DNA of 64,000 nucleotides from Schmidtea polychroa. Its lineage: Eukaryota. Below are positions 1-61,737 of this stretch, piece after piece (position 1 is the stretch's first letter; each line of letters begins with the position of its first letter). Below the pieces are notes generated by a model that saw only the letters and a program-made list of their open reading frames with translations, was not told the DNA's origin and did no database searches. The DNA lies in the NCBI GenBank assembly GCA_044892525.1, contig CM097887.1, positions 34,782,001-34,846,000 on the forward strand, written 5' to 3'. Made by a program: the position numbers and the translations under genes.

Positions 1-59
1 CGGAGGCTAACTTGACTCCTTTCCAGACACCCAATATGATTTGACAAAATGATCTCCAT

Positions 60-196
60 CATGTGTACCCATGACGACGAGTCATGTTGGTGCTGTACAC
101 ATGGGTTGGAATCTGTGAGCAGGTAAGCCACTGTGATAGGACTACTCCTCACAGTATTCGCCGTTCGGGTTCGTGAATGCCGTTAGAAGGACTTAC
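60..196 (-). ncRNA. LTR-associated structured RNA motif, copy C1
   Basis: Minus strand reads GTAAGTCCTTCTAACGGC..AACCCG..[AATACTGTGAG/CTCACAGATT stem enclosing GAGT-hairpin-TACCTG]..[CATGTGTAC/GTACACATG stem with AGCACCAA bulge and CATGAC/GTCATG hairpin]. Homologous to six other copies in the window. Confidence 0.75.
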
Positions 197-480
197 ATCA
201 ATTCACTCTTGCCTCTGGTCCAAGTGAGGTCATTTAACATACATCTTATCTACTCGGGATTATGCAAAAATTTATAGTTATATACAGATACAGCAACAAA
301 AGGAGATATTAGACGCATGAGTATATTGAACACAGTACAAAGTTTCACATAGACATTTAAACTTATTAGCTCAATCAGCATTGGCCTCATCAAAATTTCA
401 GTTCAACTACGATCAATGACGAATTTTTGGGGAGATTTCGAGAAGGGATTTGTCTTTTACTCGCACTGTGATTCCGTGAT

Positions 481-1168
481 CTACATTTCACATTCAACTA
501 ACATAGCTGCAATGTCTGACTCTAAAGTTGGGTCTGGTACATGCATCGAACTGTCGACTGGGATGGTCCTGTATTGTGGAGTGGCAAGTAGGACTGGAGC
601 AGGTTGTGAAGGAACTTGGCTAACTGCTGTGACGGTGAACAACGTCGCTTACAAGGCCGATATCTCGTAACGGCGTTTCTTTGTCTTTTCGGCTCAGGTT
701 AGACGCTTCTTTTTCTGTGGATTCGACTGGGCTGCGATGGTAGAGATATTCTCTGGAACAGCAGGTGATTTCGAGACGCTAGCGAGAGTCGACTGTAAAT
801 ATGACATATGGTATTACAGCGTCATCGATTTGATGGTGAATTGGGAATACATTCCCTTTATACTCGCTAATCCGACGCTTCAGCTCCGCCTCGGAGTAGA
901 TTTGGTGCAAGGCCTCCGACTGAGCCTTGATTTTGAGACGTTGACATCGGCTTTCTTCGAGCAAGCTGTATCGGTAGTGCTCAAGCCGTAGGATCTTTTT
1001 ATTAGCGTCTTTCATAAGTGGTGGGGCAAACCACTTGCCCTCCAGCGTGTCGATACACTTTATGAGAACTCCAACATATTCGTTCAACTTTTGTAGGCTG
1101 TCATTTTTATCGGCACACGAGAAACACGGTCTCGGGCCGGTCGGTGGGAGATTCGGTTCTGACATCAA
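481..1168 (-). pseudogene. LTR-borne novel ORF family, copy A (frameshift plus 2 stops)
   Basis: MSEP..RPCFSCADKN..LEGKWFAPPLMK..LRLEHYRYSLLEESR..GNVFPIHH. Continues in a shifted frame as NPQKKKRLT*AEKTKKRRYEISAL*..DIAAMLVECEM*. TTTGTTTAG acceptor 3 nt before the ATG at 1165. Confidence 0.8.
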
Positions 1169-1752
1169 CTAAACAAATGCAGTTTGGTCATAAAATTCAC
1201 ATCAAAATAGTTAAAATAAATTGACGATCACTCAATCTCTGCAAGATCTCGCATACTATTCTTATACATTTATTCATTATTAATTTAGAGTAGTTATGTC
1301 TAATTTTTCATTACATCGGCGGGAGTGAGACTTCATCAAAGTTACATGGCTACTTACCCTTTTCCTGGTAATGGAAAAATAAATAATAATGTGCAATTAA
1401 CTATTTATGAAATTTTATGCTAGTGAGTTGTATTGATTCGTAAGGTTAGATTAAAATCGTTTGTATATCTGTTTTGTAGATACCCTCGGATTCTCTCTCT
1501 CCTACCACTTTATCTTGAGTCAATGAATATTATGCCCGATAAATGAAGATTGAATTTTTCTGAGGGTAGGAACCTGCGAGGCCCCCTGTTAAACTCCTTG
1601 CGTGCGGATCGCAGATGGTGCGCAAATTAATACTACAAACTGTGTTTCACTCGACATCCACTCAATGATTTATTCACATTACCTCCATAATTTTTAAATT
1701 AGCCACTGATATAATTTTCACATTAATTATTATTTATGGTTGAAAATGAGTA

Positions 1753-2656
1753 TGTTGGGAATTATTTGACTAAATAAACAAAATCACTGATATTTACTAA
1801 TAACGACGGAAATGTTTCTAGTAGGTGAAGTCGGCGAACCAAATTACAATTTTACCCTCACTGGTAACATTTATGCCCTACATGTGGACGTTTTTTAATT
1901 TAAGCTCTCGACATTGAACAGCCGAAATGGTAACAATTCATTCAACTTTACAATTAAAGAGACATCCTCTTTATATTGAACGGAAATCTCGACGATGATC
2001 GTCGATGATAATTAATAAGACGGACGTGCCATCAAGTGAATATTATGGCACGAACACGACGATACACCCAGTTGGTTATGCCGGCGGTGACGAAAGTTTC
2101 ACTGATCTACGGAAGTTTAGTTTTCAGATAATTCACAGCGACTATTCCAAATCTCAACTACGTTCAATTCTTAAGTGATCTTAATGTTTACATTAGTTGC
2201 GAAGATTTGATTTTTTTCTGCCCTTTTCTCAGGTTTCCTTATTTCTTTTATTTTTAAATTTATTAAATAATTAAATTAATCTTATTTTCTCCTTCTTTTA
2301 TCGGATAATGTTGGTTATTCTGTTCGTTATTTTATATTTTATTATTTTTTCTCAATTATTTTTTTTGACTTATTTTATTATTAATATTTTAATTTTTCGG
2401 TATTCCCTTTTTGCATTTATTGTTTTTAGCTGTTTTGCTTTACTTATAATTTTGTGAGTTTTTGTTTAAGAATTAATTGCTGTCTCTTTATTTTGTTGAT
2501 TTTATTTCTTATTTTGTTTTAATTATTTGTTTTTTTCCTTTCCTATTCCTTATTTACCTTAATATTTGACTGATTACCTCAATTTATTATTATATCTAAG
2601 TTTTTACTTCGTTATTTTACAAGGTAATTTGGGTTTTCCCGGTTCTTAGCCCAACA
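1753..2656 (-). mobile_element. LTR-like unit (TGTTGGG...CCCAACA)
   Basis: 7-bp terminal inverted repeats, A-rich U3-like first half and TATAAA near 1970 on the minus strand. The start TGTTGGGCTAAGAACC matches the units at 9127 and 55798. Flanks AGTA/GTAG do not give a clean TSD. Confidence 0.65.
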
Positions 2657-2962
2657 GTAGAAAAAATATAACATTCACATCATCGAACAATTTGTTTCAT
2701 AGTTATGCAAAAAGACTGTTTCGTTGAGGTAGTAATTAGGTCCCATATAGGTCAGAATTGGTAATATGGGCAGATCCTTGCTCAAATTTTTTGAATGGCA
2801 CGCTTAATAACATGAATTATTATAGAAAATCTAGGAAAACATTTATAAAATGAGAAATAAGGGCGAATCCCTGTGCAAAATTTTTAAAATTAACATTAGT
2901 AATGAAGACCATAATTAATCGAAAAAAGGACAACAATCTAAGAAAAATGAAGATATAATGAA

Positions 2963-3107
2963 TAGTAGTTCTAGTGGTAGAGCTCATTGATTTTCAGCCA
3001 CTATGTACATTACCAACATGGTTGTTGCCATGGATACGCAGATGGTTAAAAGTAATCATGAAGGCGGTCAGGAAAGAGTCGATGACACACCTCTTAAACG
3101 CCAACGA
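2963..3107 (+). ncRNA. Structured RNA motif copy C6 (internally deleted) plus LTR-end-like CGCCAAC
   Basis: AGTTCTA-GTGG-TAGAGCT hairpin and GTAC-ATTACCAA-CATGG..CCATG. Region 2760-3107 aligns with 57400-57847. Confidence 0.65.
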
Positions 3108-3267: not shown

Positions 3268-3562
3268 AACATCCGATTTCGCATCGAAAGATTTTGATTT
3301 AGTAATGAAATTGCTCGGGAATATGAGGGCGAACCAGAATGCGGCCGTCATGACGGTCCACAAGCTTTGAACGCGAATCGAGAAACTTAAGGCCCAATGC
3401 CTGGAAATGGAGCATTCCTGGTTTGAACCGACAGATTTGAAGAAGCACATATTAATCAGGAACCAGATCGATAAAATATCATTTAAATTTTTAGGCCGTG
3501 TCTCAAATCTCATTATACGTCAGTATAAATTGTTGTCGCGCTACCACAAAGAATTTCTATGA
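3268..3562 (+). pseudogene. Divergent relative of the LTR ORF family (fragment H)
   Basis: Translation ANQNAAVMTVHKL*TRIEKLKAQCLEMEHSWFEPTDLKK aligns to DKNAAVKQLQSEVEALKK..LEGxWFxPTQMK. No CxxC. Confidence 0.5.
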
Positions 3563-4743: not shown

Positions 4744-6024
4744 TATAAATCTTACCGTTTACCCAAATTTCATCATCACAGAACTTCCACAAATCCAACC
4801 TCTTTTGTATGGAACTTGTAGTTTTGTAAGACTGGATACTTTTAGTAATTAAAATTTGTCAGATTTTTTATAACTAATTTTTATTCAAAAACATTTATTT
4901 AGTAAACAATTATTTTATAATTATATATAAAAATTAATTAATTATTCAAATGATATAGTTTATTAAATATATGTAATACTTACATTAATAATAGGTGATT
5001 TCGAAAAGACAACTGGTTTCAAATCGGGACTAACAAGATTCTACAATTGAATATAAAATTTTATTACAATTTTAAATTACTAACATTTCTATCCATATTT
5101 GTTGATTAATAGTTAAAATTTAAACAACATAATAAATAAGGCAATCGTTAAATTTTATCGTTCATAGTAATATAACATAACAACGTATATATAATAAACA
5201 AAAATAACTCTTGTAATAAAAATATATTTATATTTTTCCAATTATAATAAGAAAATTTCAATTTTATAAGTTATTTTGAACTCTTAACTGAATTTCTATA
5301 AATCTAACTTATATATATTAAATTGTTACGGCAAATGAAAATGATGTCAATTTTAAAAATGAAAAATTAACAATTATTTGAGGGAGCAACATTATTACAT
5401 TGAAAGTTAAAAGGTTCTTGTGAACTTCTTATTTCAAGAATTTCTACGATTAAAAAATATCAATCACAATTCAAGATTAGTTCTTATATAATTTGTATAA
5501 GTCATCTCTCACGATGATTGAGTTTGATCCTCCCATGTACAATTGTTGAAAATAATAATGTAAGGTCGACACCCGAAATATTGCAAATGTTTTAATGCAG
5601 CAACAAAAAATAAGCACAGATCAGCATTAAGCTAAATCAAACCAACTCGAAGTTGCTGGGTTGATGGTTTACACGAGGACTAATAAAACCATTTGTGTTG
5701 TCTCTAACCCGATTTAACATTGTTCTATCCCTTGAAATCCATAGCGATATGACGTTAGTGATGTGCTAAATAGATGAATACTCATAAAGGAGAGTTTCCT
5801 AATTTTCTCGCCATTTCAATAATTCAACAGAGAATGTAAATCATTTATTAATTACATTTTTAATTACACTCATAACTATGGAATAAGTTTACTAGAATTA
5901 TGTTGGAGCGCCACTATGTCGACACAAGTTTTAACACCTGTCTAAATGATGAAGGTTAATTACCCAATTTACAAATACCGATTCTCGAACCTTAGTTTTA
6001 CCCCACACGATTGTTCACTCGATA

Positions 6025-6144
6025 TGGCACCCGTGATTCACATCATGTTGGTACTGTGCAATGGCGGCGAAACATGGTGAAGCAGGTGAGCCCTTGCCTC
6101 AGGACTTCGACTTACCCCTATTGATAGCCGATAGAAGGACTTAC
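6025..6144 (-). ncRNA. Structured RNA motif copy C2 (partly deleted)
   Basis: GTAAGTCCTTCTATCGGC, AGTCCT-GAGGCA-AGGGCT hairpin, CACCTG, AGTACCAACATG. Confidence 0.7.
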
Positions 6145-6370
6145 GTCTCGTCTCATTTAATTAAACTTTATAGAAAACCACTTTTCTTATTTCCTACTTT
6201 ACCATGATTTATTTTGACTGTCAGAATGTGTTACACTAGGAAGTTGACGGAAAACAAATAACAGCAAGAACATTGATTTATATACATTTGAAGGCGAGTT
6301 CAGTTAATTAGAACAAACAATTGCGACAGAAAACAGATAATAAAATAACAGCACAGATCCTTCTCATAGG

Positions 6371-7179
6371 TCAAAATGTTCCAATCACATGAATAGAGGC
6401 TGATTGTCTATAAAGCGTCTGCTGTGGCTTCTGCGAAAAGTTCGTCTTGATCGAAGGACTCAGCTGCATTTTCATCCCAGGGCGTATTCGTTGGAGGTAT
6501 GACACGAAACTGAAGAGATGGCGCGATGGGCTTGGATGTAAAAGCTTAAATGTAAAAGCTTGGATGGCTGCCTGAGCACTGTTGGCCATTAGCTTACCAT
6601 CCCTCTTGGCCTGTAGAACCTTCTTCTTTTTATTTCGCTCTGCACGAGTCAGCTGTCGTCTTTTCGGCTTACTCGGTTGCACTAGAAGAGTAGTTACGCC
6701 AGGTGGTGAGATAGGCTAAGGTACTATTTGACTAGTGCCGGTGATGTAGACGTTGGAGGTCGCAGGAGAGAGAAGAGATTCCACACAACCCTTACTTGAT
6801 TTTCCAGATGGCTGTCGAGCGAAATCCTGGGGATAATGATGAATCGGAAAGACGTTATCAGCTTTCGCGATTGGTATATTAACTATCTTCTTGGTGACGG
6901 TCGCCTGCACGTAGACCTTGTGCAGTGCCCCGGTTTGCTCTTTTATCAATAATCTCTGCGTCCTACTTTCCTCTACCAGGCGTAGCGACAATGCTTGCTT
7001 CTAGCTAGTTTCTTTTGGACTTCCTTCATTTGTGTAGGAGCGAACCACATCCCTTCTAACTGATCGATTTTTCGTTTTAACAGGCCTATCTGATCCTGTA
7101 AGATTTTGATGATTGCATTTTTATCGGCGCACGAATAACATGGCTTGAGGGTCGATGTTGTGGATGGATTTCCGCACAT
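6371..7179 (-). pseudogene. LTR-borne novel ORF family, copy B (frameshifted)
   Basis: KPCYSCADKN..LEGMWFAPTQMK, then VEESRTQRLLIKEQ..DNVFPIHH, then KPKRRQLTRAERNKKKK, across three frames. TTTTTCTGAAG acceptor 3 nt before the ATG. Confidence 0.8.
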
Positions 7180-7661
7180 TTTCTTCAGAAAAATAAGAAT
7201 GTATATGAAAACTACACACTACAAACAGACGACTAGAAAACGCCGTCGAAATTTGTTTTCAGAGTTCAGTGGATTGTTGCTTAGGATTTACCTTGTTGTA
7301 TTGATATGGGTGATTGCGATTAACGCACATGTTTTGTTATCTATCCTAATTATTTTGCTTTTTAGTGTTGACATTGAGACCAGGTGGTAGTTCGTTATTG
7401 GTTATCTCTGCTTATTTTATCAGTATCAACGATTTTCATATACCTCGCTGATTAACCATGTGTTTAAGTTTAAATATTCTCACGTGGTTTCGATATTTTA
7501 GGCGACTTTCTTCTGTTCTTCTCTTTTATTTAATTACGATAACGAATAAGATTGATTACTGAAATTTTCTCCAATTCTCAACCCAACAATTATTTAAAGT
7601 ATCTAAGTGTTTTCTTAACCACAGACGTCCATCATAATCATACGCGTTAGCTCATTCCTTT

Positions 7662-7895
7662 TGTTGGCGCTTAGGGAATGTGTTATTAAAATTCTCTAAG
7701 GTTGCTGTTAAATATATCGTTGATTCTTTGCTAAATGCCTTTTTGACTATTAAACTTTTTCAATCTGTGTACTCATGGGAGCGATCATGTTGATAATGTA
7801 CAAAGCGGTTGAAAATCAATGAATAGGTGAGTCCCACTGCTGGAACTACTCCTCGTTGCATTTTCGAGTTCATAACTGCCGATAGAAGGTCTTAC
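7662..7895 (-). ncRNA. Structured RNA motif copy C3 plus LTR 3' end
   Basis: GTAAGACCTTCTATCGGC, AGTTCCA-GCAG-TGGGACT hairpin, CACCTA. Ends AAGCGCCAACA at 7662, 234 nt after the donor. Confidence 0.7.
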
Positions 7896-8042
7896 GATGA
7901 TTTTCATTACGCATTAATTTTTTCGCTTATTGTTCATTTTTGTACATTTAATTATGGTTTTCCTTATTTGATATTATTAACGTTATTTTCAAAAATTTGA
8001 GTACGGATCTACCCTTATTTTTCGTTTTAAAAATTTTATTCA

Positions 8043-9127
8043 TGTTGGCGTTTACGGGAACAACGAAGAAAACAGAAAATTTAGGTGTTAGTAAATGTGT
8101 CTAGAGAAATTGGAAACTCCCGTAAAACGTCAAATGATTGATTTAAACCGACTAGGTACCCATGGGTTCGACCATGTTGTTAATGTACGGAGTCGTTGAG
8201 AACTAAAAACCAGGTGAGCCTCCATGTTAAGACTACTCTCTGTTAGACTTTCTGAGCGGGTTCTAGACTGTAGATAGAAGGACTTACCTCGACGATCATC
8301 AATCTGAAATCAAGGTCGTTATGCGTTCCTGGATCGTTGTTTTCGTGAGCTAGAGTGAGTTTCTGATACCAGAATCAGCGCAGCGCATGTGTTAGGTCTA
8401 TTACTCATGTAAACTACAACAACAAACAAAAATAAAAAAATTAATAACGAGACAAATGAGGAACATATGTTAGGGTTACGTCCCTGAAAAACCAACAACA
8501 AATACAAAAAACAAAAATGTTAGAACTGCCACATTCGGAGCAAGCGTCAGAGAGCTTTCTGCTCTGCGTCGGCCAGTAGCTGGTCTAGGTCGAACACATC
8601 GTCCGAACCTAGGGACCAAGAGAAATCCGTGCTGAAAGTCTGCATATCGATCATTTTTATTGTTGTTATTTTCATTTTAGATTTCAATCAATCTGATAGG
8701 TATATTTCATTTTTTGTTTTAATTCTTTGATTTTATTTTAAATTTATTTATTTTTCTTTTCCATCTGACTGGTTGAATAATCGCCATCTGATATCTTTCT
8801 TATCCCATGGTAAGATGATACTTTTTGCTATTTTTGTGTCTTTTTTCGGCGATTTGTGTTATTCTTGTGCCTTTAAATTATGTTTCGTGTGCAAATACTT
8901 GCTTTTTATCGACTTTATTACTTTTGTTTTAATTATTTTTATTCATGTATTATTTATTTTTGTTGTTCTTGGTGTTATTTTTGATTTTGAATATTTTTGG
9001 TGCATTTTATTTGTCGTGTGGGGTCATCTCAGCTGACTATTTACCTTCAATTATTTACTAAATGAAAATTTTAAGAAAAGTAGGAAAAGAAAGAACAGAT
9101 ATTGTTGTTTCTGGGCTTAGCCCAACA
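8043..9127 (-). mobile_element. Internally deleted copy (F) of the ORF-bearing LTR element, with ORF C-terminus (8548-8654) and RNA motif C4 (8150-8287)
   Basis: TGTTGG...CCCAACA termini, flanks TTCA/TTCT (3 of 4 match). VFDLDQLLADAEQKAL* matches the copy E tail FVLEQLLQEAEADAF. Motif stems GACTCCGTAC/GTACCTAGTC and AGTCTT/GAGGCT. Confidence 0.7.
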
Positions 9128-10535: not shown

Positions 10536-12420
10536 GGGAACGTTCGTAAATGACGTAACATTTAAGAGGGAAGGGGTCTTGAAATTTGTTACGGAGAGTT
10601 ACAGGGGGAAGGGGGTTAAAGATTTTGCTACATAGCACAGAGAAATTTTCAAATAACAAAGGCAATTTATTACATTTTATTAAAAGTTTTGAAAAATCCA
10701 AAAGTGCTCAAGTTTCGATTTTTACTATCGCCTTATCACTGAGTCATTCGCCTATAATTGAAATAGCTTCAGTTGAAAACTGTTGAGTTTTATGATACCA
10801 AAAATCAACACTTGGTTACTTTGACTCCACCTGTTCCAAAAAATTGATAAACATAACTCTCAACGTATATTTGTTTCATAGAAAATTTACAATTCTCAAT
10901 AAATAATTACAACTATTAGTTAACCACGATTTTGCTCACAATTTCCGATCGAACTTCGCTCTGGAAGGTCTCGACCTTGTGCGATTTAAAAATTAGTTTC
11001 ACCTTTGAATTTGATTCCACTCTCTGATCCGAACTCCTTTAATACTCCTTTTCTAACTCTTCAGTTCCTCTTATAATTCCTTTTTTTCTTGGCTTTGTTC
11101 CTCAAATTCCTATTGTCAGTTTCTTCTTCCTTACCTAAAGTTACTGCCCATTATCCGAATTTGAAGTTTCCTTATATACTCCCATAATCGTTGTAATTGC
11201 CCCATTTTTGATCTAATTGGTTTTGACTTCCTTAGTTATCATTCCCTAATTAGCTATTTCTGTTGACCCAGATCGTAATTCCCCTTCTTTTGTTTACCCT
11301 AGTTTATTCGACTGTTTGGATTATTGCCCTCTGAATTTCCCGTTTGTTTATCCTTCCAAATTGCCGCGCTCGGGTTTTATTCATCTCTCGGGTTCTACAT
11401 TGGCTCGGACTTCCCATCAGCTCGGGTTTCCCATTAGTCAATTAATTAATTAATTAATTAATATTTTGCGTTTTTTCACATTTGCCTGTTTTAGGACTAT
11501 TTTTAAACATTTTCTAATAATTTCTTGCTCACTGTCTTCTTCACCATCCCCTAATCTACCCCTCTACCGCTTTCCAGCTTCAATTTCGATAACATTTCAC
11601 TTTATTCCACTTCCTCAGGTTTGCGAATTTTTCCATTTCGTGTCTGATTGTACACTTTTATAGTTCTGTTTTTATCATATCTTTCTTTGCCATTACTTCT
11701 CTGCTTGACCGCCATTCAATTTCGGGTTTTCTTTTATTCTGAACTATTCTATTTGATATAATTTAATAATTTACCTTTAAAACCTCAACAAAACGAGAAT
11801 TACAAATATACATCATTATTTTAAAGTCTTGTATTCGGCGTTGCTGACATGCCAAATGATAACTGTTGCCCATGTTTCAAAGAAAAAATCAAATCTTGCA
11901 CTTGTTCTAAATGTGGAATTTATATTGTTTCTTTAACATTACTCCATAATCACCGCAAAATACATATAAAAGAAAATGATATGATAAAAACGAGAATCCA
12001 GCCAAAAAGAGTACTCCAGAAACGAAATGATGAATTTATGGTTATAACTGAAGAATCAGTTGAAATTGAAACATACGAATGGATCGACGAAATTTTTTAG
12101 ACTTAGCCAATTTGATAATCTTACAATCAGTCGAGGAAGGAAATATTCCAGTAATAAGCTTAGATAAACATTTTCAGTGCCCATGGGAGAATGAATAATT
12201 TTAAAGTTAGATAAAATATTGAAAAATGATGACAACAATTAAAATGAAAATAAGTTAAACTTTATTTTAAAAAAATTACTTTATCAAAATATGAACTTTA
12301 AAAATTTTTGTTACGTTACGTGACAGGGGGATGGGATTCGGAATTTGTTATGATTTGTTACAAGGGGAAGAGGGGGGCAAAAAGTCGATTTTTAGCGTTA
12401 CGTAATTTACGAACGTTCCT
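10536..12420 (+). mobile_element. TWA-TSD DNA transposon (Zator-like), internally deleted
   Basis: TIRs GGGAACGTTCGTAAATGACGTAAC / GTTACGTAATTTACGAACGTTCCT, flanks TGA/TAA. C-terminal transposase-like remnant (NCCPCFKEK..CSKCGIY..NHRKIH..FQCPWENE*) interrupted by a solo LTR. Confidence 0.65.
10781..11790 (-). mobile_element. Solo LTR (group 2), 1010 bp
   Basis: TGTTGAG...CTCAACA with exact TSD AAAC. Contains AATTAATT run and TAATGGGAAACCCGAG repeats. Confidence 0.8.
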
Positions 12421-13057: not shown

Positions 13058-14420
13058 TTGACAACTATGAAACGTTCATTTGAGAAGAAGAAAGAAAGTG
13101 GAGTTGTAGGTCGAAAAAGACGCTTGTTAGAGGCAAAAGAAGTAGAAAAAAGCAGCAAAATGTTTAATACGTTTTTAAAAAATCAAGCACAAACACGATT
13201 TCTTCAGAATGTCCTGAAAATTCTGCAAATTCTAAAGAATTGGAAAATGCTAATGATGCAGTGTTCATGATAATGCTGCTGCTATGGCTGGACACAAGAC
13301 TGGTGTTCATCAAGGAATCAAGAAAAAAACAACATGCCAATATTTGTGAATTGTGATAATCATTTTCTCAATTTGGTAGGCGTCCATGCAGCCAAAGAAT
13401 AAGTAATCATGGTAGCATTTTTCGGAACCATCGATACACTTTATGTTTTTTTCTCTTATTCAACCCAGAGTTGGGAAAAGCTCAAAGCTGTTGTACTTGT
13501 GGCTTTAAAGTCTGACTCCGATACCAGGCGGAGCGCAAAAACTGAATCTGTAAAACCTGTTAACAAATATCTCGAGCAAATAGTGGAAGTTTTCCAGAAC
13601 ATAATGGACGATGAAAGCGCGACTAGTGAAACTAAAAGCGACACAAAGCAACTCTATAATCGAATATTAATATATGACTTTCTAACGTTGCTAGGGTTTT
13701 GGAACAAGATATTAATTCGTATTAACCGTGTTCAAAAGAGGTTGCAGTACCCTAAAATGAACTTTCAGGAAGCAGCTTCAAATTTAAAAGCTCTCCAAAA
13801 TTATTTGCATGATGAAAGAGAAGTATTAATTAATGACTCACTGAAAGAAGGAATCCGAATTTGGAATCAATGGGACATTGAAATTGAAAGACGACACAGA
13901 AGAAAAAAAAGAATGGATGGCGAAACATTGAGAGATGCTAGTTTATCAGCTAAAGAAGAAATTGAAAGAATTATGAAAGGGACTGTCGACCGTCTATTCA
14001 ATGAATTAAAAAGTAGAAGCGTTCGTTCAAAAGAAATATATGAAAAATTTTGATTTCTTCTTGACATGGAAAGGTTGTGTTTTAAAGCCGAAACAAGGTA
14101 CTTGAAAGAGCGTTGTGAAAAATTTGGAGAAGCCTACAGCTGTGATGTGGATGGGCAAGAATTATATGAAGAAATTTTGAATTTTAGAACGCTGCTAACA
14201 AGCCGTACCGAAAAAATGTCAAGCCCAGAACAATTACTTAATTTTATAGTTCAGTGTGGAGAAGAAAAGTTTTTCCCAATATGTGTATAGCATTGCAAAT
14301 ATTGCTGACAATCGCGGTTTCTATTGCCAGTTGAGAAAGATCATTTAGTAAACTAAAATTCATATTTTCACATTTGAGAACCTCGATGGTGCAAAGTCGA
14401 TTATGTGATCTTGCTTTAGT
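13058..14420 (+). pseudogene. Degenerate hAT transposase (ZMYM1-like family)
   Basis: CDNHFLNLVG..FFGTIDTLYVFFS.S..W..L..KSDSDTRRSA..FP..IALQILLTIAVSIAS*ERSFSKLK motifs, with frameshifts and stops. Confidence 0.8.
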
Positions 14421-15118: not shown

Positions 15119-16185
15119 TGTTGAGATCAGTAAATTAAAATAAATTTAGGTTGAAATTTAAATAAAAAGTAGGTGAAGGAAGAAGACAAATAAAAGCGTA
15201 ATCATGCACAGAATTGATAGTAAAGGAAAGTATGATGGAAGCAGTATTAGGAAATGGCAAAAGCAGTTGCAGAAGGCAAGAATCTGGAAATCCGAAAAAA
15301 ATCAATAAATTGTAAAGTTATCGAAATTGAATTGGGAAAACGGGACAGGTATAGATTAGCTAATGATCAACAAGATGGTGATTAGGGATTTATCAGAAAA
15401 TGGTTAGAAAGGGTCGAAAAGCATTCAAATGTGTTAAAACAGAAAATCGTTAATTAATTAATTAATTGACTAATAGAAAACCATAGCTATTAGGAAACCC
15501 TAGCCAATGGAGATACTGAGAGATGAAAGAAACCCAAGATCAATTAACATGAAAAGTAAATAAAATGAGAATTTCGGAAGGCCATTATCATGACAGCATG
15601 ATTAATGGAGACAAACAAAGTTAGGACTATTACGAAGGAGTAGCAAAGGGAGCCAATTAATCATGATATGGTGCAAACAACATTCAAGGAACCGGTTGTC
15701 AAACCATTGTCAGATAGTAGCAATCAGGTCAAAAACTGATTAATCAAAGTGATTATTCTAGTATAAAAGCAAAGTCGAAATTCAAAATAATCGGCATTTT
15801 GCCTCAGCTAGGGTTAGAAGGAAATGAGAATAGGCAAACGATAAAGGCGAATTAAGGAGATTAGGAAAAGGAAATATAGAATAGGAGATACGAAAAAAGT
15901 GAAAAGGAATCAAATGAAATAGAAACCGGAAAAAGTTGGTCAAGAGAAGCTAAGAAATAAAAAGGTGAATATTATCTTTTGTCAAAGCATCAACACTTAG
16001 CGGAGAATCGATCAAACTCGGACTGTTGAACTATTGATTATTGATTATAATGTATTGTTGATTGATTGTATATTGTTAAGAGAAAATATATTTTTGATTC
16101 AAATATACGTTGGGTAGTTGTTTGTTTTGATTAAAATTACACGAGAAGTCAGAGGTTACCGACTTGAATTAGCAAAAACCCAACA
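15119..16185 (+). mobile_element. Solo LTR (group 2)
   Basis: TGTTGAG...CCCAACA, flanks TTGA/ATGA. Strongly similar to the reverse complement of 50046-51003. Confidence 0.7.
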
Positions 16186-16835
16186 ATGACTTTGATAATA
16201 TAATTAAACAATTTGCGTCAGCTACAGCAAGAAAGATAAATTTGTAATAAAGTGTTAATAGATTTAACTTGTGTGCTTTTTTACCTAATTCTAAAGTAGT
16301 TTTTTAGAAAATAAAACGTAAGTAACCTATTGTCGGAGAGGGTGCAAGATCGGTGTTTGCCATAGGCGCCATTTACCCCAGGTACGCCACTGGTCTTAGG
16401 CCAATAGCAATAATTCAAGCAAAGGGATTCTTATGGAAGTATAAAATAATAACTTATTAACCATTCAATATTGAGGCGATACTAAGCAGTAACTTACTTC
16501 ACTTATATACTGTAACTAATTTTATATGTCCTATTGTGTATGTTCATCTATAAATTTAAAATGACTTTTTCGAGATCATCTTAATTTGAACAATTCTCAA
16601 TGTTGTCAATACGTAGTTACTTTAACTTATGACTTATAATTCAAAAAAGATAATTCATTAAAATTATTTAATAAATAACTGATTTAGAGCAGGAAAGATT
16701 CACGATTTTCACATTTAAATTATTTATTTATCATTAGTACGAGTTACAGTTATTTAACCTTGTTTATAATATCCAACATTTAGTAATCGACGATTTGATT
16801 GCAAGAATTATTTTTGAAATATTGTATTTGAAATA

Positions 16836-35369: not shown

Positions 35370-37156
35370 TCATGGCGTCAATGTCACTGGAAGTCGGGGG
35401 ACCTCGAGCAACCTTGTCTGTCCCGCTGGAACGGGGCGATATATTTTTTCTGTTGGCGGCGCCTGTTTCTGCGAAATCTCCTTGATTGAGGTTTGAGCGG
35501 CAGATAAGGGGCCATCCATATATTATGTACGCAAAAAAACCACGAATTTTGACACCCCCCTCCCCCTGTTGCATCTCGTACATTTTCACCCCCCCCCCCC
35601 AATGCGTACGTTGCTCGGCGGTCCCAACCCGTGTATTAAAATGCATTAAATATAAACATTTAAAACAATTTCTTTTTAATATAAAATGTATAATATACAG
35701 ATAAACCCATTTAGTTGTTACTGTAATGGTTGTAGATGCGTCTTACGTATGTAATAATTATGTGAGTCAATTAAAAACTATAAAACACGACTAATTACCA
35801 ATCTAATCATAATTGTTCATAGAAGTGTATACACAAAGATATCCTATAACCTAAACTGAATATAATTTAATACAATGAATAACATAAACTAAAAATTGCG
35901 CATTGCAGTTTATCCCTTTAACCATCCTCCGTTTCTAATCCAGTTTGCAACCACTCGAATAAATTCTGAATGACTGGCATCGCGCTGTTCTGCATTTCAC
36001 TGACAAATGGCATCAGAACCACATCATCATCAGCTTCGATTTTACGGAGCAAGAAGATTGATATACTTTTTGATTGGTTAGTTTTTAATAATACGTAAAT
36101 GGCACATCAAGAACATATTGGTATTATTAAAAACTAAAACTATTAAATCAAAAAACATCTCAATCTTTTAAAATTAAATTAGTACCAATAGTAAATAAAT
36201 TCGCATCAATGTTGAATAAAATAGGAAATCACTAAATTTCAAATAATATTGCATTTATACAAGCCTTGCTCTCGACTATATTAAAATATTAAGACTGTAA
36301 TATTGAGAATTCCATGCGTAGCAGTGACAGTATACATGTCGCCTAAGGTCATGTGATAATGCACAGCCCATGCGGTAACCTATTATATATAAAGGTTTCA
36401 TATGGGAGTATTATAACAAATCATTTTATTTTATTCCTTCGCATGCCTTTGTTGGAACACCCTCCTGCATACGCACCCGTACGCAAAACATTCACTCGGA
36501 ACACACACCCCCCTCCCCCCTCGGTGCGTACGTAATATATGAATGGCCCCTAACGAAGCTTCCAATGCCGCGATGGTGTCTCGGCTCTTCTGGTTTTTCT
36601 CCGCTCGTGAAGGGCGTTTACGTTTCTTCGGGGCCGAAATGGTTGCTGAAGCAGATTGGAGAGTCGATGGCGTTGAAGGCACGCTCGGAACTACAGCTGG
36701 CTGGAGGTTCGATGTCTTGGCTGTTCCCGACAAAATCGGCTCGTTGATGGGTGGTAACTGAAATCCATGGCCTGCACAACTAGTCGACAGTCATGACCCA
36801 CTGTCGCTCTGATGGTGATTTGGGAACACGTTGGTTCCATCCTGAATTGGGTATTCTCGTACCGTCTTTGAAATCTAGGCTTCAGTGTAAACCTTGTGAA
36901 GCGCCTCCGATTGGGCCTTGATTGTCAGCCGCTGACACCGGTTTTCTTCTAATAGACTGTCTCGGCAGTGCTCCAATCTCAAGATTTTCGTCTTTTCTTC
37001 TTTCATCTGTGGTGGGGAGAACCACGTGCATTCGTATGTTTCTATACGTTTTTTGATGGCCCCTATGTAAGTATGGAGTTTCCGAATATCTTCATTTTTG
37101 TCCGAGCAAGAAAAGCACGGTCGGAGTTCGTTGTTCGACGAGCTGGGTTCACACAT
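35370..37156 (-). pseudogene. LTR-borne novel ORF family, copy C (split by a MITE)
   Basis: MCEP..RPCFSCSDKN..WFSPPQMK..LRLEHCRDSLLEENR and APKKRKRPSRAEKNQKSR..ALEASL|SAAQTSIKE. The frame is restored by removing 35508-36550 plus one TAA. TTCTTTATAG acceptor 2 nt before the ATG. Confidence 0.8.
35508..36550. mobile_element. TAA-TSD MITE (Zator/Harbinger-like)
   Basis: TIRs GGGGCCAT(C/T)CATATATTA(T/C)GTACGCA, exact TAA TSD. Confidence 0.85.
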
Positions 37157-39411: not shown

Positions 39412-40130
39412 TGTTGTAATATCGGTATTGAGTCTGTAGTTATTCCTGTGGTGATCTGTAGTGATTTTTGCAGTGTTAATTATGATCATAAATTAAAATT
39501 TTTACCCGTAGTGATTTTTGCAGAGTGTTAATTAAATGATTTTGCGTTTGTGTTATATATTAATTTTGGTCCAATCAGGACGGAGTTGTGGTGCATTTTT
39601 TATTTATTTTTGTTATTTTTTGATTTTTTAATTGTTTTAATAAACATTATTTATCATTGTTTTATTATTATTGTTATTTTATTGTTTTATTAACAATTTT
39701 ATATTTTCTATGCTTTTTTCTAGATTTTCGTTGTCTCTTATAGGTGTAATAGTTTGTTTTAATTCTTCGTACAAATTTTGTTAAAAATTTATTTAGTTTA
39801 TGTTTGGATTTGGTTTTTCGTTTTTGCATTGTATTTTCTAAATTTGATTTTATTACATTATTTCCCCTTTTGTTAGTTACGCGTAGTTAATACCCTATTT
39901 TCTATAACTATTTTTATTTCCAGTGATTTTTATTTTTTAATTGTTTTGTTTTTCTTTTACTATTTATCTCAGTTTCTCCTGATAGATTCTTCTATTTTTT
40001 TAATTTATAGTTATTTTGATTTAATTCGGTTAAGGTTACCTCTATTTGCCTATTTTACTTTTACTTGGCGTTTTCTCTTATACCCGATTCAGCTCTATCT
40101 TGTATTGCAACTTCGAGGTTTAGCCCAACA
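39412..40130 (-). mobile_element. LTR-like unit
   Basis: Right end TAGCCCAACA as at 2656 and 9127, T-rich interior. Left boundary and TSD not confirmed. Confidence 0.45.
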
Positions 40131-43924: not shown

Positions 43925-44693
43925 ATGGCTTAACCAAATGCGAAAACCTCCAATCTGCGACCTTGTTTCTCTTGTGCGAACAAGAATGCGTCAATGCTCA
44001 CACTGCAAACCAAAATTGGCCATTTGAAGAAACGAATCGATCCCATGTAGGGGACATGGTTCACCCCCGTCCAGATGAAACAAAAAAATAAGAAAAAACT
44101 TCCGTCTCGAACACTACAAAGATAGCCCATTAGAAGAGAATCGCTCACAGCGTATCCTCATTCGAGAATGATGTAGAATTCTCCACCAAATGTACACCAA
44201 CTCAGAACTCAGGAATCGTATCGCAGAATGTCATGCTGCATATCAAGTGAACACCTTTCTCGTCACCATTTGACTGAAGGTTCAAGTTCACCAAAACGAT
44301 CCACATGTCGAGGACATGGGAACAGTAAAGTTGCGTTGCCTGTTCCAGAGGTGATCTACGTTGGTACTAATGTGGCCCAGTTGCCACCGCGGCGCCTGTC
44401 ATGGACACGGCTCTATCCATCGCAACTGAAAACCCGAAACGCAAATCCTGCACTCGGGCGGAACGGACGCAGCGTCAGCGCGAAAAATAGGCAGAGTCGG
44501 AAGATACTCTAGCTGCCACCCATGCCAAAGAAGCCACCCAGATACCAGCCACACTAGAAACTTCAAAACGCCCGTCGTATAGAATAATATCCGCCTCCGG
44601 TACACAAGACAAACAGATTTTGTCCTCGAACAGCTGTTGCAGGAAGCCGAAGCGGATGCGTTTTGGGAGTCATCTACCCCAAACCCAACCTAA
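43925..44693 (+). pseudogene. LTR-borne novel ORF family, copy E
   Basis: LRPCFSCANKN..WFTPVQMK..LRLEHYKDSPLEENR..NPKRKSCTRAERTQRQREK..FVLEQLLQEAEADAF, with several stops and frameshifts. GATTTAG acceptor 2 nt before the ATG. Confidence 0.8.
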
Positions 44694-44933
44694 CGGTCTC
44701 ATTTCTTCTTCGACTCTGTTCGCCTGTAATATGCGTTAACTCTGTCGATATTCTGTAATAATTATAATATATATTTGTTCCGAAAATTTGCACTTGAATG
44801 TGTTTGGTTACATCCTCTTTGAATGCGGTTAGAAATGAAGAATAACTGATGGTTGTAATTTGGTCGCGCGGTAAATCTTGATTCACGTTCTCCAACCAGT
44901 ACCAGTTGGACGATAATAGTTCTGATTAGAAAG

Positions 44934-45174
44934 GTAACACCTTCTATCGGCACTCTGGAACCTGTGTAGTTGTAACGCAGCAGCTAACCTGATCTATAGT
45001 TTTCGCCAACTTGGGGCATTACCAATATTGACTACTTTCGTATGATTTAAGAATCATGTGGGTGTTTCGAATGGTTGATTTTGAAAGACTAAGTATGATG
45101 ATAAAAGAATAAGATGACAGATGCATTCTAGACTACCTGAATGATGTGTGTCAACCTGAAGGGAAACCCCAACA
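44934..45174 (+). ncRNA. Structured RNA motif copy C9 plus LTR 3' end
   Basis: GTAACACCTTCTATCGGC, AGTTGT-AACGCA-GCAGCT hairpin, AACCTG, ATTACCAA. Ends CCCCAACA at 45174. Confidence 0.7.
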
Positions 45175-55797: not shown

Positions 55798-57847
55798 TGT
55801 TGGGCTAGAACCGAGAATCGAGAGCTTGTTTTAATGGGTCGGAAATGCATGGCGTGAGAATCGCGCCGGGTTAAATTAAAACACCAATCAATACAAATTA
55901 AAGTACATAACACATTGATGATAAATAAGACCCGGTTGATAAAATAAAGGAACGAAATAAAAGATCGCAATCACTAACACAATTAGGAGAAACATCACAT
56001 TCGGAATAGCTAACAACTAAGAAATAAAATAATAATAAATAAAATAATGGGTAATAAATTAATTAATAATATGAAAAATTTCTAAATTTAAAATAAATCA
56101 TCTAGTAAACTGGTAAAATAATAAAAAGTAGAATAAAAGTAGTAAAATTAGATAAACCATAAAATTTATAAAACTAAATTGTTTAATGAAAACTAAAAAT
56201 AAAACCAACAAAATTATTTAAATTATAAAACTTATAAAACCAAATTGTTTAAATCAATGAAACTAAAGTAACTTATAACTTATTTAAATTAATCTATAAT
56301 TAATCTATAAATTAATCTATAATCTATAAATTAATCTATAACTTATTTAAATTATAAAACTTGTAAAACTAAATTAAAATTAGCAAAAACTATTTAAATT
56401 ATAGAATTTATAAAAATAAATCTTAAAAATTAAAAAAAATTAGAATTTTGATTAATTAAATTAATTAAATTAAAAAATAAGCAATTACACACATTCATGC
56501 ATGCATGCAAAAATTAATCAGAATTGCCTCGCATTCTAATTGAATATAACAACAGAGAATGCGTAGGCGTATAATTCAATCAGTATAAATACTGAGTAAA
56601 ATTTCATTTTTAAAAAAAAATGGAGAAGTCACGCTCAACTGGTTAACTGAAAATCGCTACAGTAGACAATGCAAATCCCGTGGCTCTCGATTGTCAGTTT
56701 TATGCATGCATGGTGAGGTAAATTTGATTTTTGTTAATTTTATGTTAATGATTTATATGTTAATTTTATGTTAAAATTTATATGAAATAATATGTAATTT
56801 TTAGGATTTAGTAATTGAATTTGTTTGGCTGATTTTGTGTCTGTTCATTTTAATTTTAACTTGGAATAATATTTTAATAGGAGTAAGATGAGTTTGATTT
56901 TATTAATGACAAATTTATATGATGTAATTTGTAGGATTGAATAAAATTTTTTAATTGGATTTGTTTTTAATTAATTCTGGAGTCTTGTCTATGATTTTTT
57001 TTTGATAATATGATAATGTAGGTTGGTTTTTTTATGAAATTTATGTGTCGATGGTCTGGGCTGGGGAAAGGTTTGTGGACGGGCGGCACTACGTGCTGTT
57101 GGTCGGCAGATGTTTCGCCAGTTGAGTCCATCGGGGTAGGGAATATAGTTAGGGAGATGAACGGTTAAAGGGGGTAAAATCAATTTGCGATAGTTTAGGG
57201 CCATATTTAGAGTTAGAAAGTATAGGACTTTTATTTTCATAGATATTTTTGAGTTAGGAGAAATATTAGAATAGTTATGAGCTGCTGTCGGTAGAGGAAG
57301 TAGGTTTAGGCAATTTTATAGAAACCACGGATAGTTAAGATATTCGATCGTTCAGGATTAGAAATACAGGCTCAAGTTTTCATGAGAAGTGTGGAAATAT
57401 GTTTATTAACTTGTGAATGAGGGCCAATCCCCGCTCAAATTTTTTGAAGGGTAATTTGGATATTTTAGGGAGTATATAACAACAATTATTAGATGAAAAA
57501 TAAGGGCGGATCCCTGCACAAAAATTTACAAGGGAACAATTGGAAATACACTTAATTTAGGACCACAAATGATCTAAAAACAGCATACATAGTGAATAAT
57601 GACGTAAGACCTTCTATCGGCCGTCTAGAACCCGAAGAGAAAAACAATGGGGAGTAGTTTTAGCAATAGAGCTCACCTGCTCATTGTTTTTCACCTTTGT
57701 GTACAGTACCAACATGGTCGTCGCCATGGGTACACAAATGGTTTAAATTGCAATAGTCATGGAGGTGCTTAGGAAAGAGTCGAACGATTATGATTACCCT
57801 AAACGTACTTTAAAATGGAAGATTGACACACCTCTAAGTAACCAACA
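55798..57847 (+). mobile_element. 2050-bp solo-LTR-like element with the RNA motif but no family ORF
   Basis: TGTTGGGCTAGAACC...ACCAACA, exact TSD AAAG, motif C5 donor 244 nt before the end. Confidence 0.8.
57604..57738 (+). ncRNA. Structured RNA motif copy C5 (best preserved)
   Basis: GAAAAACAATGGG/CTCATTGTTTTTC stem, AGTTTTA-GCAA-TAGAGCT hairpin, TTTGTGTAC/GTACACAAA stem with AGTACCAA bulge and CATGG/CCATG hairpin. Confidence 0.8.
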
Positions 57848-58805: not shown

Positions 58806-59161
58806 ATATCTGTAGTATTTTAAAATTACTAATTTTAGAGAAGACATTTTTATTCTATATAAATACTGGTAAAAATTCATTAGCAGGGGAGAATAAAAAT
58901 TATTTAACTAAAAGAAATTGACGAACTCGTCCCGCTTGCGCTTCGATCATTCTGCACGCATGAGCCGTTTCCTCTTTGAACGAGTGGTTGCATTGACAGT
59001 GGACGGCAAATTGCTGATAGGTTGCGAAACGACTAATGGTGCTGGCACTTTGGACGAACCATACTTGTTCCGATATACATCACATCTGAGGGTGGTTAGA
59101 GGAAGAGATTCCCCCTGTGACTGAGACAAAATGTTTTTGCCGCTAAGACGATAAACTGGTA

Positions 59162-60675
59162 ATTCCGTAATTTGGACTCAGAATAAATTTTTTTACAGTC
59201 AATAATTTTTTCTTAATATATATTTTGCTAAAATTGGGTTGAAATCGTAGTTAAATAACTTAAATAAACTTAACTACATAATTAAATATCCCGTTGTTTT
59301 AATATTATAAATTAAATTGCGTAATTTTGAATTAATTGTATGCATGAATTTTCGTACAGTTATATGTTATATAGTTATTTTCCATTATTTTGACTTATTG
59401 ATGAATTTATATTATAATAGACTTATATTTATTTAATATATATTTTATAGACCTTTTCAAAAGAAATCCGGTTACAAATAAATTTGGAAAGATCTAATGG
59501 AAGGTCATATGGCGAAATCTCTAAGAAATATGGTATTTCGCGTTCCACTATCCAATATATGGTTAAAAATGATGGCAGAAGTAAGAAGAAGAATGGACCT
59601 AAAGAGAAATTAAGTAAAGGAGACAAACGACGTATCCTTGCATTAGTAAATGATTCATTTACTAAAAAAGTTAAATGTTCGTCAACTGATATTAAAAAGA
59701 CTATGCAATTAAATGTATCAAAACACACAATTTGCAGGGTTTTAAAAAGTATGAATTATAATTACAAAAATGTACCATCAAAATTCAAATTATCTTATAA
59801 AATGAAACAACGAAGGTTTGAGGCAGCTAAAGAATTTCTCATTTCCGGAGTCCAATGGAATAATGTCGTTTTTTCTGACGAAAAATACTTTACTTTGGCA
59901 GGATGCGATTCGTACTATTGTTGGATAAAAGATAACCAAACACCTAGACGAATAAAAAAGGTCATAAGATCTCCGGGTATTATGCTTTGGGGCATGATTC
60001 TCCCAAATGGTCTACTCTCTTATGAATTGCTTAAAGGAAAAATAAATTCTAAGAAATATATCACATTAATAGAAGAAAAGGCAATTCCGATAATTAAATT
60101 AAATATGCCTCAACAATTTATATTCCAACAAGATAATTGTCCAATTCACGTTTCTAAGGAAGCGCATGAGTTTTTCAGTAATTCGAATACCGACATTTTA
60201 AAATGGCCACCTTACAGCCCTGATCTAAATATTATTGAAAATATTTGGCATGAGCTTTCAAGTAAAGTGTATAATGATGGACCGATAAAGAACTTAGTGG
60301 AATTACAAAGGAAAATTAAATCCGCAGTATCAATATTTAATGAAACCTCCCATCAATATGTAGGTAATTTGTATTCATCAATGCCGTCCAGATTGGTTTC
60401 AGTTATCATTAAGCGCGGGGACAGACTAAAATATTAGGAATTATTAGAATTAAACGTTTCGATAGACTAAAATATGAGAATTGGTCAGGTGTACGAATAT
60501 TTATGCTACAGTAAAATATTGATGTTTGTATTTTGTAAACATAATATATTCTTTGCATGTCCTTTATTACTGATATGATATTGTCTCATCAAACTTAATA
60601 AGTGTATAAATAAAAATTAATAATAAATTGCATTGGTTAAAATTTTAGGTGTACGAAAATTTTTGATACGGGCGG
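59162..60675 (+). mobile_element. Tc1-family DNA transposon (left end degenerate, inferred)
   Basis: Right end ..GTGTACGAAAATTTTTGATACGGGCGG-TA. Repeated GTGTACGAA direct repeat (60490, 60649) with an inverted copy near 59350. Confidence 0.75.
59484..60437 (+). CDS. Tc1 transposase, DD34E
   Basis: FSDE, QQDN and PPYSPDLNIIE with 34 residues between D and E, plus an N-terminal HTH. The open frame starts just after a TTATAG acceptor, so the true start is probably in an upstream exon. Confidence 0.92.
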   Translation: MERSNGRSYGEISKKYGISRSTIQYMVKNDGRSKKKNGPKEKLSKGDKRRILALVNDSFTKKVKCSSTDIKKTMQLNVSKHTICRVLKSMNYNYKNVPSKFKLSYKMKQRRFEAAKEFLISGVQWNNVVFSDEKYFTLAGCDSYYCWIKDNQTPRRIKKVIRSPGIMLWGMILPNGLLSYELLKGKINSKKYITLIEEKAIPIIKLNMPQQFIFQQDNCPIHVSKEAHEFFSNSNTDILKWPPYSPDLNIIENIWHELSSKVYNDGPIKNLVELQRKIKSAVSIFNETSHQYVGNLYSSMPSRLVSVIIKRGDRLKY

Positions 60676-61737
60676 TAGATGCGATTTAAGGCCTCAGATT
60701 GAGATTTGATGGTGAGCCTCAGGTTGCGATTCTCTTTTAGAAGGCTGTCCCTACAGTGTTCCAACCTTAAGATTTTTCGATTCGTCTCCTTCATTTGTGG
60801 TGGGGTGACCCAGGTTCCTTCCAAGAGCTCGATGAGTTTCTTTAAGGCCTCAACTTCCGACTGTAACTGTTTTACAGCTGCGTTTTTATCTGCGCATGAG
60901 AAGCACGGACTGAGTCACGATCTCGGCAGCGTTGGTTCTGCCATTTCTACAACGAAGGTGTTTAAGGACAGTTATTTCAACTTTCGGAGGGTTAGTCCGT
61001 TGAAAAATATTCCATTATCATCATTCAAATTACCCAACCATCTAAAGAAGTGGGAAAGGGAAAGAAAACAAAAAAACCCCGGGAACTAGTTGTCCCCACT
61101 ACTCATGCAATCACAATATATTGTACCGAATATATATAAGTTATATATAGGCTAATTGAATTTACACTTTAATTGCGAGATATAGACACGCAACCTTATT
61201 TTCCTCAATCTTGTCGAGTTGCTCTCAGATTTATTTTTAATTAAACTATCCGCGTAGATTATATCAGGTTGGTGTGTAAATCTATCAGTCGATTTATACG
61301 CGATTTCCTCGACTATGTCTCCACGGCACATTTGTTTATGTATTATTGTTATTACCAAATGTCACTCTGATGTAATCACTATGATTATTAACGGAAAATC
61401 CCTAAATGGTGGTAATAAACACTTAAAACTAGCAGATCGTCAATCAAGTAAGCATAGATCGAATTCCTAATGCGGTGCTGATAAACAATTACGGAGTGTC
61501 TGACTTTGATCTGTCAGATGGTTATCATGGGCCATTAGTGGAAAATGGCGCTCGTCTTATGGTCGATTCACGTATATGTATAACTATGATTTGTTGGAAA
61601 TTCGTGGGCTTTACACGCTTGTCACTGTTCGATGAGAGATTTCAGCCTAGTAATGTGTATTCGGATTTGGAATTTATTTTGCTGTATTCAACCTACTGAA
61701 AGACGGATTTATTGGCCTAAGCGAGTTAATAAGCGAG

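Follow-up and report, generated by a model that had tools for sequence, protein, structure and literature searches.

Protein-coding sequence inside a long terminal repeat (LTR) is known from MMTV sag and from the overlapping part of HIV nef, where it lies within U3, upstream of the promoter. Giant Burro retrotransposons are described, in the available part of PMC6431247, as carrying cargo that includes BIR, BCL2, MATH and dUTPase domains in one polyprotein of ~5000 amino acids. For HTLV, the accessible text of PMC3504254 places the Rex response element in the LTR, beside a splice donor and a poly(A) signal. The open reading frame (ORF) family analysed here was noticed in a stretch of 64,000 nt of the Schmidtea polychroa assembly GCA_044892525.1 (contig CM097887.1, positions 34,782,001-34,846,000), referred to as the window. 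The family is very probably an accessory gene that Burro-type Gypsy elements with an env gene carry within the LTR, downstream of the LTR promoter. A selected, apparently spliced gene in such a position is unusual for a retrotransposon.

The ORF family in the window and across the genome

A sequence-only reading of the window had reported five copies of an unrecognised family, and their coordinates and strands are correct, with copies A to D on the reverse and copy E on the forward strand (Table 1). The copies match copy A in tblastn with E-values of 1e-20 to 1e-40 and are likewise recovered by a profile search. Counting of the proposed common motifs in the window gave a mixed picture. PC(F/Y)SC and W(F/V)xP are present in all five copies. 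The LRLEH core is found as (L/F)RLEH in four of the five, copy B reading ARSKH, and the strict form KRKRx(T/S)xAE of the KRKR motif is restricted to two copies, with only looser forms in B, D and E. The motif (G/D)N(V/L)FP, ascribed to A, B and D, is present in A and B and reads GNLFL in D and TNVFP in C. Copy E and the tail remnant F both carry the FxL(E/D)QLL tail, for which a single further match at 31640 is due to chance and lies in the antisense frame of a transposase. As had been stated, stops, frame changes or insertions break each of the five copies.

The flanks, which had been held unalignable, contain a non-coding motif of ~200 nt conserved after the ORF, and LTR termini are common to the copies. 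The purifying selection suggested earlier is borne out by coding constraint, both in the window cores and in open frames genome-wide. Over 44 codons of the window cores, mismatches number 27-30 at third and 8-14 at second positions in 10 of 10 pairs (pN 0.25-0.33, pS 0.75-1.05). Differences at third positions are two to three times as frequent as at second positions, and the divergence of the window copies is that of coding DNA. With copy A as query, the 781-Mb genome returned 5019 first-look candidates, which is not a copy number; all of the 150 that were scored have E < 1e-39. Intact copies do exist elsewhere in the genome, as natural open frames of 248-257 amino acids. The dN/dS ratio amounts to 0.11-0.12 in 124 pairs with dS > 0.1 and to 0.23 in the 23 closest pairs, 288 of the 435 pairs being saturated; the set comprises 30 distinct frames from 87 loci that were chosen for being open, and its pairs are not independent. 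Constraint is strongest in the core from CxxC to HH (pN 0.008-0.03 at pS 0.09-0.49) and weakest in the middle linker.

Table 1. Positions of ORF copies, LTRs, RNA elements and other repeats in the window.
Feature	Position	Strand	Remarks
ORF copy A	481..1168	-	CxxC, coiled coil, linker, basic helix, acidic tail; frame change near codon 120 and stops
ORF copy B	6371..7179	-	second subtype, tail FDQDELF; frame changes and one stop
ORF copy C	35370..37156	-	stops; ~1-kb insertion with 27-bp inverted ends (about 35507-36551) separates the tail
ORF copy D	58923..60944	-	interrupted by Tc1/mariner transposase ORF (59451-60437, +); promoter boxes upstream at 63731
ORF copy E	43925..44693	+	stops and frame changes
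Tail remnant F (sixth remnant)	8562-8594	-	profile/motif search
Weak seventh ORF-like remnant	3353-3445		E 0.018; downstream of partial RNA element 2942..3095 (+)
Solo LTR with copy A	1..2656	-	2709 bp, 3' end 53 bp before window start; TGTTGG...CCAACA; target duplication CTAC
Solo LTR with copy B	5901..7588	-	1688 bp; target duplication TAAT
Probable deleted LTR with remnant F	8043..9127	-	RNA element 8102-8323; flanks AGAA/TGAA, 3/4 match
3' end of further LTR	7662..7930	-	no ORF detected; RNA element 7712-7930
Probable 5' end of LTR C	39553..40130	-	TGTTGGGCT at 40130; GATTGG...TATATAA at 39576
RNA element and LTR 3' end of copy E	44923..45174	+	CCAACA at 45174
ORF-less solo LTR, young gag-only family	55798..57847	+	same termini and RNA element (57562-57792); target duplication AAAG
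RNA element, LTR A	19..250	-	GGACCA-loop hairpin, donor consensus GTAAGT at 196, two further covarying hairpins
RNA element, LTR B	5985..6197	-	conserved motif search
Partial RNA element, another LTR	2942..3095	+	conserved motif search
Tc1/mariner transposase, open, 328 aa	59451-60437	+	DDE_3, E 6e-19; inside copy D
hAT remnants	18545-19269; 13403-14053		Dimer_Tnp_hAT, E 9e-10 for one
GIY-YIG remnant near copy C	34635-34982		E 0.005, below cut-off

Several repeats in the window are unrelated in kind. At 29380-32505, a transposase-like ORF of 761 amino acids (29897-32182, +) stays open between 53-bp inverted repeats and has no Pfam match above cut-off. A repeat family at 11369-11708, 15208-16187, 24215-24462 and 50044-51352 carries 17-bp subterminal tandem units in both orientations and looks like a non-autonomous DNA transposon. 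A Penelope link, considered because of the GIY-YIG remnant, was dropped, as 20 other 10-kb loci displayed no such association.

LTR location and carrier elements

ORF-carrying LTRs measure 1.7-4.2 kb and are bounded by TGTTGG...CCAACA. Since their LTR termini are flanked by the same 4 bp, copies A and B represent solo LTRs. For copies C, D and E, only one LTR end or the promoter boxes were recovered, and a search within the window found neither the 3' end of LTR C nor the 5' end of the LTR of copy E. Among 41 rows of the RNA motif, a TGTTG...CAACA pair with a matching 4-bp duplication is present in seven, six of which bear the ORF; most rows without a terminus pair were loci too short for a 5' end. 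An LTR end followed by a primer binding site (PBS) was matched three times and never in the reversed control, with the ORF upstream in 3/3 and gag plus pol following in two of the three. A free-standing unit of the deltavirus or retrozyme kind is ruled out by LTR termini, target duplications, PBS and gag-pol. Due to its location inside the LTR, the ORF is copied into both LTRs and remains in many solo LTRs, which become potential protein-coding units across the genome. Two local arrangements were seen in addition: both ORF subtypes stand in tandem before one RNA element at L035:4187-5969 (the same place as L028), and C2:37322000-37361999 (L122-L125) holds a 27.4-kb tandem segmental duplication, 98-100% identical, with two ORF-bearing LTRs per unit.

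Paired LTRs were recovered for two elements. One extends over ~44 kb, to which nested insertions may add length, with LTRs 99.3% identical over 3991 nt; another extends over ~30.5 kb and has 4215-bp LTRs that are 99.8% identical, with a 253-aa ORF open in both. An ORF that is open in both near-identical LTRs indicates that the gene is carried by recently inserted elements. Among 150 scored matches, eight clusters consist of same-strand hits 26.2-26.6 kb apart; both ends were checked for one of them, and this is the element with the 4215-bp LTRs. In the two PBS matches that continue into gag and pol, the internal Pfam order is Retrotrans_gag, zf-CCHC, Monjiviricetes fusion glycoprotein, RVT_1, RNase H, rve and ankyrin. 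Both of these elements encode gag with CCHC knuckles (Retrotrans_gag E 1.7e-11 and 2e-9; zf-CCHC) and, between gag and pol, a mononegavirus-like env (PF24664, E 8.5e-29 and 4.2e-59). Reverse transcriptase, RNase H and integrase are followed by ankyrin, the integrase core being scored in one element, as that stretch of the other fell outside the scanned ORFs. This gag-env-pol-ankyrin order is that of Burro as laid out in section 7 of PMC6431247, within the available text. Of the Burro features, gag-CCHC, env, RT-RH-IN with ankyrin and a length of at least ~30 kb with paired LTRs are present in the carrier.

Between PBS and gag lies a RING ORF of 165 amino acids (zf-C3HC4_3, E 2.6e-8; L179:2406-2900, -), and a 153-aa antisense ORF without Pfam match is situated inside a young LTR (L179:6173-6631, +). 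The RING ORFs would be compatible with an LTR-encoded protein that acts on the host, expressed early from the LTR to counter silencing by piRNA or chromatin, or as an adaptor in apoptosis or ubiquitin pathways. A coiled coil with a short helical tail would suit an adaptor, Burro elements are PIWI targets according to the accessible text of PMC8532177, and apoptosis- and ubiquitin-related cargo is described for them in the available part of PMC6431247. However, neither Pfam nor a feature search of one relative (P0003) found a host-like domain, and the very conserved core (pN 0.008-0.03) bears no sign of an arms race, so that a host-directed function is unlikely. As to such cargo in the present carriers, no BIR, BCL2-like, MATH or dUTPase domain reached E<=0.001 in 22 ORFs of the two interrupted copies, a scan confined to the longer ORFs.

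A young gag-only family, 12.6-16 kb long, has the same termini, PBS and RNA motif, and lacks both the ORF and pol. It encodes an 877-aa gag with CCHC knuckles behind a leader of ~8 kb (C1:206248500-206268300, L081-L082; window 55798-57847), and 52 scored gag copies share 98-100% identity; of five elements examined, one has an open gag frame and four have a broken one. The family is probably a non-autonomous partner of the Burro-type elements. At the 3' LTR junctions (L126:9969-10000, L180, L082) no polypurine tract is seen and a conserved ...CC(C/T)GGAGTGATT takes its place. TGATT is found behind the 5' LTR too, in front of a PBS that is set back 7 nt and that we take to be tRNA-Pro-like, and plus-strand priming may be unusual in these elements.

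LTR signals and the conserved RNA element

The first ~500 nt of the LTR are A-rich and precede a GATTGG box and a TATA box, which lie 423-545 nt from the LTR 5' end in six of nine LTRs. The boxes are also found upstream of window copies C and D, and the LTRs of copies A and B are without them. In full-size LTRs, the ATG follows 1.5-2.4 kb downstream of the promoter boxes, and donor-like sites are situated in the LTR upstream of the ORF. In 28 of 29 open copies an AG stands 0-2 nt ahead of the ATG, compared with a background of 14%, which points to a splice acceptor. Of 23 non-redundant LTRs, 7 have AATAAA at a distance of 143-154 nt ahead of the downstream donor (0.81 in shuffled sequences; one of 24 LTRs was skipped); it is missing at this fixed position in the other 16, several of which have variants there. 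A second TATA box at the hexamer is disfavoured, since the core common to the LTRs reads AATAAA and is absent from the young ORF-less family. Upstream of the RNA element, ORF-less LTRs repeat a motif of ~30-40 nt, AAGGGC(N)ATCCCTG, two or three times (window 2758-2891 and 57411-57534), which suggests enhancer-like repeats or small hairpins.

The complete order of signals is promoter boxes, donor-like sites, AG-ATG, ORF, hexamer, RNA structure with donor, LTR end, PBS, RING and gag, and the start of gag is thereby placed more than 6 kb from the promoter, behind the LTR ORF and the RING ORF. These motifs give provisional positions for the transcription start, the R/U5 boundary, the splice sites and polyadenylation. 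If the upstream promoter starts the genome, R and U5 would together span ~3.7 kb. A region of this putative length may need a chaperone, and a basic helix combined with an oligomer could chaperone nucleic acid, here a strong-stop DNA of unusual length, or serve as a virion protein. Such a structural or replicative helper is nevertheless very improbable, for gag already has CCHC knuckles and the young gag-only elements multiply although they do not themselves carry the ORF.

The non-coding motif starts about 280-305 nt after the ORF stop and ends just before CCAACA. It holds a splice-donor consensus and three hairpins. In 24 diverged copies, 21 of the 36 proposed pairs display two-sided changes and 91% of the cells are paired; none of 500 shuffles reached the covariation score and slid controls pair at 31-53%, these controls ignoring relatedness. 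Folding of single sequences is ordinary (z 0.90 and -0.25), so that the RNA structure is supported by covariation only. Rfam gave no match at gathering score in the window, its eight chance-level hits in five loci all lying off the motif, and a known RNA family or ribozyme was ruled out on this basis. Within the element, e.g. at window 122-130 (+), a conserved CTCACCTG has, on the antisense strand, the sequence of a strong splice donor (CAG/GTGAG or GTAAG) and might be used by antisense transcripts of the LTR. The same CTCACCTG is part of a conserved internal loop.

The first hairpin, with its GGACCA loop, is present in 42 of 52 ORF-bearing and in 1 of 30 ORF-less LTRs, after exclusion of 60 of 142 hits as duplicates, unanchored or near an edge; since the ORF-less class is mostly one young family, this association is not independent. 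ORF-less gag-only elements retain the donor and two hairpins. Hexamer, GGACCA-loop hairpin and donor lie within ~150 nt, and the hairpin motif goes with the ORF in the numbers just given. Both observations could fit a poly(A) read-through or antitermination switch, in which the protein would bind the hairpins just past the poly(A) site of its own mRNA and, together with U1 on the adjacent donor, let Pol II proceed through the internal region of 26-40 kb. According to the available part of PMC3694450, foamy viruses control polyadenylation in their LTR through U1. However, foamy viruses achieve this without a viral protein (same source), the 3' LTR has the same signals and read-through would be unwanted there, and the ORF-less class is dominated by a single family. 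A switch of this kind is therefore decidedly unlikely.

The encoded protein and its possible function

AlphaFold2 predicts helices at residues 14-43 and 47-100, disorder at 101-180, a basic helix at 182-206 and a tail helix at 232-243 (monomer: mean pLDDT 67, pTM 0.28). In agreement with the oligomerising coiled coil claimed earlier, two chains of residues 1-118 are modelled as an in-register parallel coiled coil. The predicted parallel homodimer of residues 13-88 scores 0.49 against 0.00 for the best control, with contacts that agree in at least 92% and pLDDT of at least 77, although the predictor may owe such a pass to similar solved coiled coils that it has learned. The dimer mark is reached by 21/30 solved homodimers and 0/23 monomers, and by 17/29 and 0/30, respectively, among eukaryotic proteins.

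The family remains unrecognised, as had been stated. None of 20 members reaches a Pfam cut-off, whether for gag, L1 ORF1 or a host family, and gag is encoded separately downstream. The best hit of the PDB sequence search has an E-value of 2, a Foldseek search with the model, as had been proposed, returned no match at E<=0.001, and fold searches yielded generic coiled coils only (Z at most 6.5). Pfam REV is matched by 0/20 members, which agrees with the earlier view that the likeness to Rev and Rex is one of architecture, free of any claim to homology.

A profile search of 1.84 billion representatives recovered 13 relatives. Most are fused to unrelated host-like domains in chimeric gene models and appear to derive from elements of a related animal; this explains an annotation problem, since protein databases contain the relatives solely as exons joined to gene models of other kinds. 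Coiled coil, TW-x-x-P and P-x-HH are retained in them. The CxxC is absent from them, and zinc binding is accordingly not a family-wide need. In addition, they carry an Arg tract like RRRPNRNRRRRERRR, and a class-1a nuclear export signal (NES) pattern was found in two of five relatives scored (P0003, P0010). Pfam REV is hit by one of the 13 (P0007; E 0.0013, 19.1 bits, cut-off 22), where the match consists of a low-complexity Arg tract. A 5.8-billion set gave no homologs among 6913 and 137 candidates in a search of shorter proteins, pattern matches gave none in 18 viral and 58 metagenome sequences, and the Atlas had no usable feature hit for P0003.

Of the proposed RNA-binding or NLS stretch, a conserved basic NLS/ARM-like helix stands, with a predicted net charge of +5 to +9 in 11 of 12 proteins. 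In S. polychroa copies the stretch is Lys-rich and equally readable as a plain NLS. The tail did not hold up as NES-like: with the known NES classes, a fit was obtained in only 1-2 of 12 non-redundant S. polychroa proteins, class patterns being counted without background expectation, and the helix after the basic stretch gives a looser match in 6/12, with mixed classes and likewise without background. The net charge of the tail is -3 to -5 in 11/12, and by its sequence the tail looks more like an acidic amphipathic helix of the activation type than an NES. A BH3-like tail was rejected, as by eye an acidic residue occupies a hydrophobic position of the BH3 pattern.

The better fit of the acidic tail to an activation helix makes an LTR transcriptional activator the main rival explanation. 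A Tas/Tax/Tat-like dimer would bind U3 DNA or nascent LTR RNA while its tail recruits co-activators, which predicts positive feedback from every LTR, solo LTRs included. A coiled coil, a basic helix and an acidic helix form the usual layout of an activator, and the protein combines a dimerising coiled coil and a basic helix with a short acidic amphipathic C-terminal helix. Its tails VDIDALL, FDLDMIF and FDLDQLL are of a type that resembles acidic activation motifs. For the extra ORFs of plant Retand elements, regulatory roles are proposed in the available part of PMC11963269. On the other hand, ~80 disordered residues separate the basic helix from the coiled coil, unlike in bZIP proteins, the fold searches found no DNA-binding fold, and the Arg tract and NES pattern of the relatives point to RNA export. 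Altogether, an activator seems somewhat unlikely.

The protein probably regulates the RNA or the transcription of its own element. Its sequence context, in the LTR of an env-bearing element with a putative splice acceptor and a structured RNA, favours a regulator of the retroviral type. Tentatively, it may be a Rev/Rex-like post-transcriptional switch that enables genomic RNA to build up with its intron retained. The LTR would first yield a short spliced and polyadenylated mRNA for the ORF protein. As each LTR inherits both intron and ORF, genomic RNA destined for packaging would need to retain the intron and to continue past the poly(A) site used by that mRNA. By analogy, intron retention combined with poly(A) passage would be the problem that complex retroviruses solve with Rev or Rex. 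According to the proposed mechanism, the protein would dimerise via the coiled coil, enter the nucleus via the KRKR...KRR helix and bind the LTR RNA structure, whereupon its C-terminal helices would recruit a host export or processing factor and unspliced genome and gag-pol RNA would accumulate. The ORF-less gag-only elements, with their donor and two hairpins, might draw on the protein in trans.

Apart from the lack of homology to Rev or Rex, the rare NES fits of the tail and the hexamer missing in 16 of 23 LTRs, further points speak against the Rev-like reading. The predicted fold consists of two long helices that would form a long parallel coiled-coil dimer, whereas Rev folds as a helical hairpin. 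ORF-less elements preserve the RNA structure as well, as would be the case for a packaging or priming signal. Furthermore, cis signals suffice for the export of unspliced RNA in simple retroelements, so that a protein may not be needed. That an invertebrate Gypsy-class element has independently evolved the scheme of complex retroviruses, with a Rev/Rex-like regulator and an RNA response structure in a 4-kb LTR, is conceivable but rather doubtful. Under this scheme, solo LTRs would be self-contained expression cassettes and ORF-less gag-only elements could borrow the protein in trans. If the ORF regulates RNA fate, control of the Rev/Rex type would extend beyond vertebrate retroviruses, and the elements would offer a direct test of how a genomic RNA of 30-44 kb escapes splicing and early polyadenylation.

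Comparison with HTLV Rex/RxRE and HIV Rev/RRE shows a similar putative layout, in which a small protein with a basic stretch of the NLS/RNA-binding type and an oligomer domain is encoded by an apparently spliced mRNA. As in HTLV, according to the accessible text of PMC3504254, structured RNA is located in the LTR near a donor and a poly(A) signal. In contrast, no sequence or fold homology to Rev or Rex was found, and no NES class is shared consistently by the S. polychroa copies; moreover, the LTR contains the entire gene, which is therefore present twice per element, and the host element is a Gypsy retrotransposon. Coding inside the LTR is shared with MMTV sag and HIV nef, in contrast to which the ORF is situated downstream of the CCAAT/TATA boxes and behind a putative acceptor of its own. 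Extra ORFs of the plant Ogre/Retand elements, e.g. TRP28, are likewise conserved, possibly regulatory and part of giant Gypsy elements (available parts of PMC11963269 and PMC6431247), but those are internal and often antisense, and no sequence relation was found. In literature including the accessible parts of PMC11410931, PMC13238120 and PMC11963269, no description of an LTR-internal ORF in Burro was found; the original Burro supplement or Repbase may list it. With Burro/GYPSM1, as presented in the available text of PMC6431247, the carrier shares gag-CCHC, a mononegavirus-like env between gag and pol, RT-RH-IN, ankyrin, a length of at least 30 kb and accessory ORFs. It differs in that the accessory ORFs described there (section 7) are internal, with none inside the LTR and no mention in that text of an LTR RNA structure. 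The giant Burro-type carrier is thus known, and what is unusual is the selected accessory gene inside its LTR, accompanied by an RNA structure for which Rfam gave no match.
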